From the NCBI GenBank assembly GCA_951406725.2, contig OX597819.1, positions 35,650,001 through 35,714,000 of the forward strand: 64,000 nt of DNA, in the 5' to 3' direction. Source of the DNA: Octopus vulgaris (taxonomy: Eukaryota). The notes beneath the pieces were generated by a model. That model was not told where the DNA came from. It worked only from the letters and a program-made list of their open reading frames with translations, and made no database searches. How positions within the stretch are numbered: position 1 is the stretch's first letter; the number at the start of each line of letters is the position of its first letter. The position numbers were made by a program, and so were the translations under genes. Shown here piece by piece: positions 3,513 through 50,089 of this stretch.

Positions 3513-4124
3513 TTAAAATAAGGTAATTAGAAATATTGAATTTCTAAATGTCGCAGAGAGACATAAGTGGTGGTGAAGCGATATAGTGGTCATATACTGT
3601 CAACTCAATGTGACAGTCCCGTGAGGGAATTACACCACTGCCATTTAGCCCTAGAAAACATCGACGTCTCCTGTCAGCTGTGACGCATTTTCTGTGTCAG
3701 CGGTGGTGTAATTCCCTCACGGGACTGTCACATTGAGTTGACAGTATATGACCACTATATCGCTTCACCACCGCTTATGTCTCTCTGAGACATTTAGAAA
3801 TTCAATATTTCTAATTTCCGTGATCAGTAAATAAATTTTACTGATAATATGATATGTTTGCAGAGAGGTTGCAGTCATCTCAGCGAGCGAGACAGGCTAC
3901 CCTGAACTGACCATGAGCAATACACTCAGAAACATATGTCTTCAGGTGCTAGTCCCAGCTGGCGGGGGTGATTGCCTCCCCTTTGCAAATATAAGGACAC
4001 AGAAAATGTGTCAAAGCCGACCGGAGACGTCGATGTTTCCTAGGGCTAAATGGCAGTGGTGTAATTCCCTCACGGGACTGTCAGATTGAGTTGACAGTAT
4101 ACGACCACTATATTAAAATAAGGT
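3513..4124 (+). mobile_element. Hammerhead-bearing retrozyme-like element, family R1 copy 1 (inverted piece + 353-nt redundant monomer)
   Basis: TSD ttaaaataaggt at 3513-3524 and 4113-4124; inverted segment 3525-3698; gtggtgtaattccc repeated at 3703 and 4056; homologous to 40356-40728. Confidence 0.75.
3901..3946 (+). ncRNA. Minimal type I hammerhead ribozyme motif (G8C core mutation, probably inactive)
   Basis: cctgaa-CTGACCA-tgag caataca ctca-GAAAC ATAT GTC-ttcagg: stems I and II pair, stem III palindromic. Confidence 0.75.
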
Positions 4125-4128
4125 GATT

Positions 4129-4625
4129 ATAATCAAAATAAGCAACAAGGATATCCAGAGGTAATGCAGCATGATCATTTCGTGTGACTCCATTTAATTG
4201 AATAATGCAAACATTACATCAATTTAAAATGTAGAGCAACCTTCAGCTGCATAAAAATATAGAATTTAGTTAAATTCAAAGGACTCATTTGTATAACTGA
4301 ACCCTCCCCACCCCCACCATAAATAAATCTAAATAACAGAAATAGTCAGTGATAAGCAGTGTCTTTTTTGAAAAAATCTCAGTTACAACTGTAATGTTGT
4401 TGGTAAAACATGTTCTTTGTCTATCTCTTTATTCTCTTGGAGATTTTGGGTAAAATTATACAAATGAGTCCTTTGAATTTAACTAAATTCTATATTTTTA
4501 TGCAGCTGAAGATTGCTCTACATATTAAATTGATGTAATATTTGCATTCTTCAATTAAATGGAGTCGCATGAAACGATTGTACTGCATTACCTCTGGATA
4601 TCCTTGTTGCTTATTTTTAGATTAT
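4129..4625. repeat. Inverted repeat, ~168-bp arms (4129-4296 / 4456-4625), hammerhead element family R2
   Basis: Arms are reverse complements at roughly 90% identity; right end abuts (TA)n. Confidence 0.85.
4500..4588 (+). ncRNA. Type I hammerhead ribozyme motif with extended stem II
   Basis: atgcag-CTGAAGA-(~58-nt stem II)-GAAAC gatt GTA-ctgcat; core intact, predicted cleavage after 4582. Confidence 0.7.
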
Positions 4626-4753
4626 ATATATATATATATATATGTATACATATATAGGAAAAATTTTATCATCACTAATTGTGACTGAGGGTGCCAAAGC
4701 ACTTATATTACAAGAAATAAGACTTCAAAACTCTTTCTGCTGTAAGAAGCATG

Positions 4754-6537: not shown

Positions 6538-7473
6538 ATATGTCAAGTTTGTCAAGGCAATGGGACTTGCAGAAAATACCATTTCTATTTTTTTTGGTAG
6601 ATATTTAACATCATGATTGAGCATGAGCAAACTAGCTCAAAAGTGAATCAGTCATGCGGTCCTGTCTTTTATTGGAGGAGTATAGGGATTCACTCCCTTG
6701 CTGGCAATATGTACTGGGTGCTGACTGCACCTATAACCAGCTGGTGAAAGATCTACCTGGGGTTAAACTAGTAGTAACATTGAACAGCCATATTAATGTG
6801 GTGATTAACTTTATTTATTTAACATTATTACTGGTATAACCAGGATATTCAATTTTGCACTTAAAAGTTAAGGTCAGTTTAGTTTGGGTAGGTATGACCT
6901 TTCATTCTTCTGGGATTGATTACAATAAATACCCAGTTGTGTGTAGTCAATAGTTACAATTTGTTTGCTGCACAGCTTGGGCGTCACTATGCTTACTGTC
7001 CAATTTATAAAGCCTTTCTTTAGTTACATATGATTTATTACAAAATGTCATTAGTTACTATTGATTTACTTTGTACCCTGGGTGGCATTAGTGTTGCTAT
7101 TGGATCTATAAAGCCTTATTTTGGTTACAAATATTTGAATACACATCACTCCACCCCCCACTTCTCTATTTGGAGCAATGGTTGATGTGATCACATTAAC
7201 TTATTTAACCCATATATAAGTAAAAATATATAAGTAAAAAATATACAGGATTAAGATAAAGAGAATAAAAAGGAAGTTATGTTGCATAAATAGCATATCG
7301 TTTATTAGTTACTGTGAGTTATATCAACCTAATTATTATGCTGTACTAAACAAATTATTTTTTGCAGATTATAAAAAAAAAAGAATTTTTTTTGCCCTGT
7401 TTGTAACTAACATTAAATAAATCAATAATTTTGTCTCTTTTACTAGAATGAAGAGTTTGCACATGTCCAGAGA

Positions 7474-34705: not shown

Positions 34706-36047
34706 TAAGGGCCTTTCTATGGAAAATACTTAGCAAACTTGGATGTCCGGATCATTTTGTATCTATAATTAAATCATTTCATGATGGGATGGAGGCTTGG
34801 GTCAATGTTGGTGGTGCCATGGTGGGACCCATTCCTGTAGAGAATGGTGTCAAGCAGGGTGACATCCTTGCCCCAACTCTCTTTTCTTTGTACTTTGCTG
34901 CTGCTTTTACTCATGCTTTTGCTAAGGTTAGCTCTCTGGGAATATATGTCAGATATTGATCTTCTGGCCGCCTCTTTAATCTTCACCGATTTGCTGCCAA
35001 TTCAAAGGTTTCCCAGTCTATTATTTGTGACCTCCTTTATGCAGATGACTGTGACTTAGTCACTCATACAGTGGATGACATGCAAATACTCATGAATTGC
35101 ATTTCTGCTTCTTGCAGGGCATTTGGACTCAGCATTAGCCTGGACAAGACTGTTGTAATGTTCCAGCCTGCACCAGGAAATCCATATATAGAACCAGCTA
35201 TCTTGGTTGAAGGAACAATTCTGAAGGTAGTAGACAAGTTTGTCTACCTGGGCAGCACACTCAGCCGTTCTTGCTCCCTGGATGAAGAAATATCTTTCAG
35301 GTTGCAGAGAGCAACTAATTCCTTCCGGTCTCTTTAGTCTCGTGTCTGGTCCCAACATGGCATCGCAAGGAGAACAAAAGTTGCTGTGTACCGTGCTTGT
35401 GTACTGACATCGCTTCTCTACTCATGTGAGACATGGACTCTGTACAAAGGTCAGGTAAGGGTCCTTGAACGTTTTCATCAGAGATGTCTCATACGCATTC
35501 TCATTGTTGGCTGGACCTCAAAAATTCCAGACACACAGATCCTGAGGACAGCTGATATCTTGAGTATTGAGGCGATGGTACACAGGCACCGGTTGCATTG
35601 GACTGGACACCTTATTAGAATGGAGGATAGAAGGATTCCTAAGCAGATGCTCTATGGAGAACTTGTGAATGGAAGGAGACTCCAGCAGAAACCAAGGCTA
35701 CGATTTAAGGACTATGTCAAGTCCTTGTTAAAGGCTTTTGATATACAGGACACTGACTGGGAGAACAATGCCTGTCATCGCCACAGATGGAGAAAGCAGG
35801 TTAAGGAGGGGATCGACACTTTTGAGAGAGCACATATCCAGTATGAAGAACTTAAGCGAGCTGTGCGAAAGCGCATGGCTCGTATAGTGAATGGGGAAAG
35901 CTTGGTCTGCAATGTTTGCAGTCGTGTATGCTTGTCAAGAGCAGGGCTAATTAGCCACCAACGGAGCCGCAAATGCAAAATATAAGTTAGTCCTAGAGTG
36001 CACAATGTTCCTGAAGGTCGGCAATGGTCTTCCTCGGTCACGAGTGG

Positions 36048-40299: not shown

Positions 40300-40740
40300 A
40301 AATTTAATATTAGAGTGGTTGTATACTGTCAACTTAACCTGTCATCAGCCCAGGATTAGAAATTTAATATTTCTGATTACGGTAACCAGTGAATAGATTT
40401 CACTGTAAATATATATATTTGTGAAGGGTGGACAGGCACCTCAATCAGCAGATCTCACTATCCTGGGCTGATGACGGGTTAAGACCCAGAAACATGCATG
40501 TCCTCAGGTGTGAATCTTGGCTGGTAGGGGTGCTTGCCTCCCCTTCACAAATATAAGGACGCAGAAAATGTGTCAAAGCCGACAGGAAGTGTTCGATGCT
40601 TCCTAGGGTTAAATAGCGGTGGTGTAATTCCCATACAGGACTGTCACGTTAAGTTGACAGTATACAACCACTCTATCGCTCCACCACCGCTCATGTCTCT
40701 TTGAGACATTTAGAAATTTAATATTTCCAAATTTAATATT
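40300..40740 (+). mobile_element. Hammerhead-bearing retrozyme-like element, family R1 copy 2
   Basis: TSD aaatttaatatt at 40300-40311 and 40729-40740; inverted piece 40312-40355; ttagaaatttaatatttc at 40356 and 40710 (354-nt period). Confidence 0.8.
40462..40508 (+). ncRNA. Minimal type I hammerhead ribozyme with intact core
   Basis: cctggg-CTGATGA-c gggt taag accc a-GAAAC ATGCAT GTC-ctcagg; palindromic stem III; predicted cleavage after 40502. Confidence 0.85.
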
Positions 40741-49519: not shown

Positions 49520-50089
49520 CTATCTGTAATCTTGAGGGGGCCAAAAACGCAACAAATATTTACCAACGTATGGACATGACCCGAAAAGTTCACTTCTTGA
49601 ATTTAGACATGTAGCGGGGTCTAAGCTGCTTTTCCAGATGAGCCATCTTTCCATATCACAAAGACCACACTTTCCACTGCCGTTGGTGTAGGGCTTACAC
49701 TTGGCTAAGATCTTCCAATGGATGTTGTAACTGACACCTTTATATTTTAAGGACCATATGTGACTGGATAATTTAGTTGTTTTCCTTTTATCCCAGTGTC
49801 TGAAGCTCAAGGTGTGATTATTGAACCTGGCATTGAAATTACCCTCTGTAAGGCCCATGTATTTCTTCGTCAAAACCATGTCCTTAGTGGATATAGAGTC
49901 CACAGTGGCTTCATAAATGATGGTCTTGGACATGCAAGCTCCATTTAGCGGGCACAGATTTTTATCCCTGCATGAACAGCTGGTTTCACATTCTGGTTTT
50001 TGTGTGTTGTGTGTGATTATATGTTCAAAATTAGTAGTTGAGCTGAAACTGATTTTTAAGTTATGTCTATTGAAGAGCTTTCTGTGTGC
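49520..50089 (-). pseudogene. Penelope-like element (PLE) GIY-YIG endonuclease domain, 5'-truncated
   Basis: Stop-free frame KLFNRHNLKISFS...CSCRDKNLCPLNGACMSKTIIYEATV...YMGLTEGNFNARFNNH...WKIL...CGLCDMERWLI...LNSRSEL. Confidence 0.85.

Follow-up and report, generated by a model that had tools for sequence, protein, structure and literature searches.

A predicted hammerhead repeat of Octopus vulgaris, likely inserted in trans by a Penelope-like enzyme

Two inserts in the window and their families

The window, a 64-kb stretch of Octopus vulgaris DNA, contains at positions 3513–4124 an insert (copy 1) that belongs to an abundant repeat and is presumably dead. The AT-rich 12-mer TTAAAATAAGGT flanks it as left (3513–3524) and right (4113–4124) target-site duplication, neither being assigned to a strand, and has no third exact occurrence in the window. 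The chance of such a flanking repeat is about 4e-5, even allowing 100 registers. The left part of the insert is an inverted, 5′-truncated arm of 174 nt (3525–3698, minus strand) that lacks the hammerhead and is 94% identical to 3996–4113 and 97% identical to 3703–3819. Its outward-facing 3′ end is a long site, L, with the tail included. The direct arm (3699–4113, plus strand) spans 414 nt or about 1.17 units and ends at a short site, S. Its period of 353 nt is the unit length of family A, to which copy 1 belongs. The redundant 5′ part of the arm is a partial, pLTR-like upstream unit (3700–3760, plus strand) that recurs at 4053–4113; 56 of 58 positions match from 3703 and 4056, and BLAST widens the repeat to 58 of 61. 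The preliminary description, which had read the locus as a 353-nt monomer with about 58 nt of terminal redundancy, preceded by an inverted 174-nt piece of itself and framed by a 12-bp direct repeat, was accurate in each of these elements.

All further features of copy 1 lie on the plus strand. The tail covers 3761–3815, from one fixed 3′ end (S, 3760/4113) to the other (L, about 3815–3817), and contains the 3′ strand of a stem, P1, and two hairpins. It is followed by a side hairpin (3825–3843) that covaries across families A to D and by a predicted long rod (3854–3992) whose outer stem pairs 3854–3865 with 3981–3992. The tip of the rod carries a type I hammerhead motif (3901–3946) with stem I formed by 3901–3906 and 3941–3946, the core CTGACCA at 3907–3913, a palindromic stem III, and a predicted cut after 3940. 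The 5′ part of a conserved 3′ domain (3993–4113) comprises two hairpins, the stems P2 and P3, the 5′ strand of P1 (4053–4061), and a single-stranded linker that ends at S. Just to the right of copy 1, an inverted repeat of about 75 bp (89%, 4128–4200 and 4552–4626) begins, perhaps belonging to a small DNA transposon.

Copy 2 is built from the same parts. Its direct arm (40356–40728, plus strand) consists of one 354-nt unit of family B plus 18 nt and has L as its 3′ end; the core CTGATGA is undamaged at 40468–40474, and the predicted cut falls after 40502. The short inverted arm (40311–40356, minus strand) ends at S and is a chimera of the hammerhead 5′ side and S-proximal sequence, in which the S-proximal hairpin loop passes into the hammerhead stem II loop at a common 6-nt word, suggesting a template jump. 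The left flanking 12-mer (40300–40311, no strand) recurs at 40729–40740. It is a less clean target duplication than that of copy 1, since it is also found inside the element (40360 and 40714).

The direct arm of copy 1 is colinear with 40356–40676 at 77.5% identity (252/325) and then wraps to 40615–40733 at 88%, which agrees with the earlier observation that copy 1 keeps the sequence order of 40356–40728 from another starting point. Copy 1 ends at L in its inverted arm and at S in its direct arm, and copy 2 at S and L, respectively; these opposite ends, together with unlike 5′ truncations, account for the apparent permutation between the two. Both are close to their own family consensus (9 of 353 positions differ in copy 1, 8 of 354 in copy 2), and no ORF of at least 120 aa is found at either. 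Elsewhere in the window, at 34960–35985 (plus strand), lies a disrupted ORF for a LINE-like reverse transcriptase whose C terminus bears a C2H2 finger (weak Pfam matches).

The host genome (2.8 Gb, 227 contigs) is rich in microsatellites. Each copy, used as query, retrieves its own family: copy 1 yields 2473 first-look candidates of family A with best matches 89 to 95% identical, and copy 2 yields 2931 of family B with best matches 88 to 97% identical, neither figure being a copy number. The intact core-to-cut-site motif has 68 exact matches in family A and 44 in family B, and the controls have none. Further relatives are family C (352 nt) and the younger family D (360 nt). The group comprises at least five families, those beyond A to D being represented by single stubs. 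Consensus sequences of A and B are 80% identical, and the other pairs among A to D are 53 to 62% identical. Another, distant family is represented by a decayed stub at 6600–6869 of the window (plus strand; covariance model, 43 bits), and a similar stub adjoins the end of a young Neptune-type copy elsewhere (L092:6591–6737).

Insertion ends and the template RNA

Outer ends were mapped onto the circularised unit in two sets of loci, each of which takes in the window's own copy. The loci were collected with queries containing neither end: a mid-unit query for family A (29 kept, one duplicate of 30 removed) and an internal 3′-block query for family B (28 after removal of two duplicates). The preliminary description had expected copies to start anywhere on the circle and had named fixed ends as the observation that would speak against this. 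Fixed ends are what the 3′ side shows: 38 of 43 outer 3′ ends in family A fall at S (19) or L (19), as do all 45 in family B (28 at S, 17 at L). Together, 83 of 88 lie at two sites about 56 nt apart, whose scoring windows cover 31 of about 354 positions. S is equivalent to 4113 of copy 1, and L to 3815–3817. In contrast, the 5′ ends scatter, as the one-armed inserts show (26 outer 5′ ends). Close to S and at the rod base, 5′ ends seemed to be in excess; this was discounted, as full-unit queries favor length. Randomly permuted reverse transcripts of a circle, with any start and any end, would fit the unlike starting and stopping points of copies 1 and 2 as well as the scattered 5′ ends. However, the concentration of outer 3′ ends at two sites, with which families C and D agree in using the same pair, makes such an origin scarcely credible, and it was rejected.

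Head-to-head, two-armed inserts occur at 14 of 29 loci in family A and 17 of 28 in family B, and they carry one S and one L end in 11 and 16 cases, respectively. A survey of families A to D (159 inserts, drawn in part with full-unit queries) contains 69 two-armed inserts: 51 with one end of each kind, one with two S ends, one with two L ends, and 16 with an unclassified end. Among classifiable two-armed inserts, 51 of 53 hence follow the one-of-each rule. Target duplications other than microsatellites are present at 19 of 57 loci and measure 8 to 14 bp (12 bp in 11 of the 19), and the flanks are, on inspection, AT-rich or (TA)n. At one location (L007/L012, G000:C6:39902394–39903840), two inserts of family A share their 5′ breakpoint and point towards each other across about 260 bp, a pair that resembles a local inverted duplication.

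The inverted arm might instead stem from fold-back self-priming, which has been proposed for Penelope palindromes (PMC3846280), or from a rearrangement at the DNA level rather than from a second priming event. The 5′ ends of both arms do lie within 6 nt of each other in 6 of 59 two-armed inserts, where 2.2 are expected, but they are offset in the remaining 53. Moreover, the arms stop at different fixed sites and the duplication lies outside both. A general fold-back origin was rejected for most inserts, and an inverted arm made without second priming is very unlikely.

The 5′ ends also bear on the template. Only 1 of 77 in family A and 1 of 81 in family B come as close as 5 nt to the predicted cut, against uniform expectations of 2.4 and 2.5. 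As 5′ ends do not pile up there, the cDNAs run through the cut site, and a cleaved linear monomer was rejected as template; an uncleaved multimer or a circle is the likely one. Copies longer than one unit continue upstream into that unit once more (40 of 77 pieces in A, 27 of 81 in B, in samples partly selected for length). The earlier proposal that RNA longer than one unit is reverse transcribed is supported by cDNAs that pass the cut site and often exceed one unit. Variants common to laps or to the two arms of one insert occur at about three times background (47 versus 17, 33 versus 12, 21 versus 6, and 50 versus 14). Rare non-CpG variants common to laps number 7 in A, 3 in B, and 2 in D (background about 1.5, 1.1, and 0.1), and those common to two arms 0, 7, and 1, respectively. 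This sharing fits one template sequence per insert, coming from one molecule or two.

A specific form of this template would be a 353-nt RNA circle, produced by double hammerhead cleavage and ligation and copied for more than one round by a Penelope-type enzyme, which we regard as quite possible without favoring it. It agrees with the exclusion of cleaved linear monomers, with arms of up to 739 nt in family A and 944 nt in family D, and with the rare variants common to laps. Long source arrays were not seen, with one same-strand pair a unit apart among the 68 and 44 exact core matches. The palindromic stem III, retained with four different sequences, suits dimer cleavage, and RNA circles have been demonstrated for mussel, coral, and axolotl retrozymes (PMC7229834). 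Yet an uncleaved linear multimer or template jumping leaves identical footprints, and unprocessed RNA is described as the main substrate of Penelope in vitro, where ribozyme cleavage was dispensable (PMC11167929). Copies 1 and 2 furthermore hold one whole hammerhead apiece, so neither alone could release a unit circle. Partial tandems are frequent. Tandem whole hammerheads are rare in family A, with one pair among the 68 exact matches, and are present in family D, but not in copy 1; none was found among the 44 exact core matches in family B.

RNA fold, covariation, and the hammerhead

The units of copies 1 and 2 fold at z = −8.7 and −9.0, and none of 100 shuffles was as good. Consensus circles of families A to D share a branched plan (z = −9.6, −8.7, −5.3, and −5.9; 40 shuffles). 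The predicted plan runs from the side hairpin to the long rod with the hammerhead at its tip, and on through two hairpins, a junction, and the tail hairpins to L. Within the junction, P1 is predicted to enclose P2, P3, and the single-stranded linker with S.

Covariation was scored in 21 natural sequences (five each from families A to D, chosen as closest to the consensus, plus one stub), with controls that disregard relatedness among about five lineages and with a structure drawn from the same families. In the 3′ domain, both bases change in 18 of 43 pairs (in at least five sequences for 12 of the 18), a result that was matched by none of 500 shuffles and compares with 4 to 8 pairs in slid registers, kinship being ignored. 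In the hammerhead, 6 of 12 pairs change on both sides, among them C3-G8 to U3-A8 in family D, a core swap that is already known (PMC4209133). This count was reached by 11 of 500 shuffles, the score by none. The covariation claimed in the preliminary description is real, both in the hammerhead and in the domain enclosing S, and the evidence of compensatory change, though good, falls short of formal proof. As had been stated there, stem I, the outer stem, and the side hairpin do pair, but stem II had been compared out of register; its homologous pairs, GAG/CTC versus GGG/CCC, hold one compensatory pair, and its base is T-A or C.A. The covariation is most simply explained by selection on the element's own RNA, as had been suggested; the sequences compared represent the master lineages A and B rather than sister copies.

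All four families carry a predicted type I hammerhead motif in which stem III is a perfect palindrome of a different sequence in each. The family A core is CTGACGA, and 25 of 29 rows keep CTGAYGA. CTGACCA, a change of G8 to C, occurs in a single one of these 29 rows, that of copy 1, and is a private lesion. In a Penelope hammerhead, G8C abolished cleavage (PMC11167929), so that loss of cleavage is predicted for copy 1, in line with the earlier judgment that it is probably dead. A scan of the window against Rfam gave no match at the gathering threshold.

Penelope-like enzymes and the kinship of the repeat

A C-terminal endonuclease fragment of a Penelope-like element lies in the window at 49520–50089 (minus strand); a genome search with it gave 21631 candidates. 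Among these is a very young, near-identical family with intact 717-aa ORFs and 2590-bp tandems and inversions, and a search for the GIY-YIG family led to a young family with a 781-aa ORF. Pfam gave no name to the fragment or to the 717-aa ORF; from their motifs, we take the fragment, the 717-aa ORF, and the other ORF groups to be of Neptune or Poseidon type, the 717-aa family being Neptune-type and the 781-aa family Poseidon-type. Both families possess two 3′ ends, about 62–67 and 40 nt apart, respectively, and hammerhead-like motifs occur near the 3′ ends of young ORF-bearing Penelope-like families. In the 781-aa family (L160–L164), the ORF follows a second long ORF (359–479 aa) within a 4.7-kb unit that has about 1.1 kb of 3′ UTR and, close to its end, a U3-A8 hammerhead-like motif. 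Penelope-like elements do not usually have a second ORF. At one locus (L025:1398–1501), the short 3′ end of a family A copy abuts a 5′-truncated, 99% identical piece of the 781-aa family that runs in the same direction; the junction reflects either insertion into AT-rich DNA or a switch of template from one RNA to the other.

The retrozyme unit was not found as terminal repeat of a Penelope-like ORF at about 100 ORF-anchored loci searched by BLAST, nucleotide HMM, and covariance model, the latter being applied to retrieved loci rather than to the whole genome. These loci come from three groups and are a small sample of the 21631, 6136, and 11692 candidates. In the 717-aa family, a second Neptune-type group, and the Poseidon-type groups including the 781-aa family, no homologous terminal repeat was found at the loci searched. 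Hits of the covariance model near Penelope-like ORFs were set aside as separate insertions, as lying on the opposite strand, or as falling past the element's end. None of the three autonomous groups sampled in this genome has terminal repeats that resemble the 3′ domain.

The copies might be truncated stumps of a longer Penelope-like element with an ORF, of which the unit would be no more than the terminal repeat. Hammerheads are present in Penelope terminal repeats (PMC4209133), and Xenopus retrozymes are related to such repeats (bioRxiv 10.64898/2026.07.22.740005). But the sequence beyond one unit is the same unit, in the pieces counted above, and no same-strand Penelope ORF lies directly upstream among 150 family loci (with overlaps). 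We consider stumps an unlikely origin. An ORF combining reverse transcriptase and GIY-YIG is likewise absent from the unit and from directly upstream of the copies examined.

Judged by sequence, the families behave as non-autonomous Penelope-like elements and show, at family level, the non-coding unit, the type I motif, and the target duplication by which animal non-LTR retrozymes can be recognised. Copy 1 is very probably an old, dispersed, non-coding 353-nt repeat with a predicted hammerhead, i.e., an animal non-LTR retrozyme, that was inserted in trans by the enzyme of a Penelope-like retrotransposon. We infer the mobilising enzyme, the RNA fold in vivo, and self-cleavage, the enzyme because the insertion scars match the published Penelope footprint. 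This footprint comprises a partial tandem, an inverted 5′-truncated copy, and a tail on one end (PMC8557442, PMC3846280). In vitro, a Penelope protein cuts AT-rich DNA on both strands, extends them, and begins reverse transcription at two positions within the RNA that mark the limits of the tail (PMC11167929). In the octopus, a Penelope-like enzyme would nick AT-rich DNA on either strand, at positions some 12 bp apart, and each freed DNA end would prime reverse transcription of the element RNA at S or L, two fixed internal sites about 56 nt apart that would be embedded in the conserved fold. The two cDNAs would halt at variable points, often beyond one unit, and would be joined back to back, frequently via a few bases of microhomology.

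The elements described as Penelope/Poseidon and Neptune (PMC8557442, PMC3846280, PMC11167929) share the partial tandem, the inverted 5′-truncated arm, the one-sided tail, the two fixed 3′ ends, AT-rich targets, a short duplication, and a hammerhead in the repeat. Compared with endonuclease-bearing Penelope-like elements as reported there, the families described here have no ORF, and their tail measures about 56 nt instead of 30 to 40. Their hammerhead lies about 170 nt upstream of S on the tip of the long rod. With minimal Penelope hammerheads (PMC4209133) they have the dimer-type helix III and, in family D, the U3-A8 core variant in common; differences are the 6-bp stem I, extended here into the long rod, and a stem II of 3 to 4 bp instead of 7 to 8 bp.

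Animal non-LTR retrozymes, as portrayed in PMC7229834 and bioRxiv 10.64898/2026.07.22.740005, have the same non-coding unit of about 350 nt (350 to 390 bp in mussel), type I hammerhead with weak palindromic helix III, low GC, lack of LTRs, target duplication of more than 4 bp, tandem tendency, and proposed dependence on Penelope. The units of 353 and 354 nt are inside the range of 150 to 450 bp set for this class. Unlike the retrozymes in those accounts, families A and B are mostly dispersed inserts of one to two units rather than long arrays, the base of stem II has a mismatch, and a terminal-repeat relative was not found among the ORF-anchored loci. Li, Clavereau and Pollet (2026, bioRxiv 10.64898/2026.07.22.740005) call a retrozyme active when it has two complete hammerheads; copy 1, with a single one, is not active in this sense. 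A plant LTR retrozyme, with a type III hammerhead in its LTRs and a 4-bp duplication, is excluded by the type I motif and the 12-bp duplication.

Retrozymes as non-autonomous Penelope derivatives, as well as the tail on one inverted repeat and the two start sites, are already described in the publications cited here. In the openly readable literature, we found neither cephalopod retrozymes nor a covarying domain at the start sites of an ORF-less family, although published family lists and structure figures could overlap with ours. The new element here is the cross-family covariation around the start sites. Mobilisation of animal retrozymes by Penelope has so far been argued mainly from co-occurrence and terminal-repeat similarity. 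In the octopus, the insertion scars themselves bear the Penelope signature, in that two-armed inserts nearly always pair a short end with a long one, and the covarying 3′ domain points to an RNA element that an enzyme would need to recognise. Tentatively, and with more doubt than confidence, we propose that a single RNA domain, kept by compensatory change in at least five ORF-less families, may serve as the landing pad of a Penelope enzyme, offering two starts, one for each cut DNA strand. It would do this on a small circular RNA and would be unrelated in sequence to the terminal repeat that belongs to the enzyme. The unit of about 350 nt provides a compact substrate for the existing in vitro assay. 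If the proposal is true, the landing-pad domain would be a structure-encoded, two-start copying signal.
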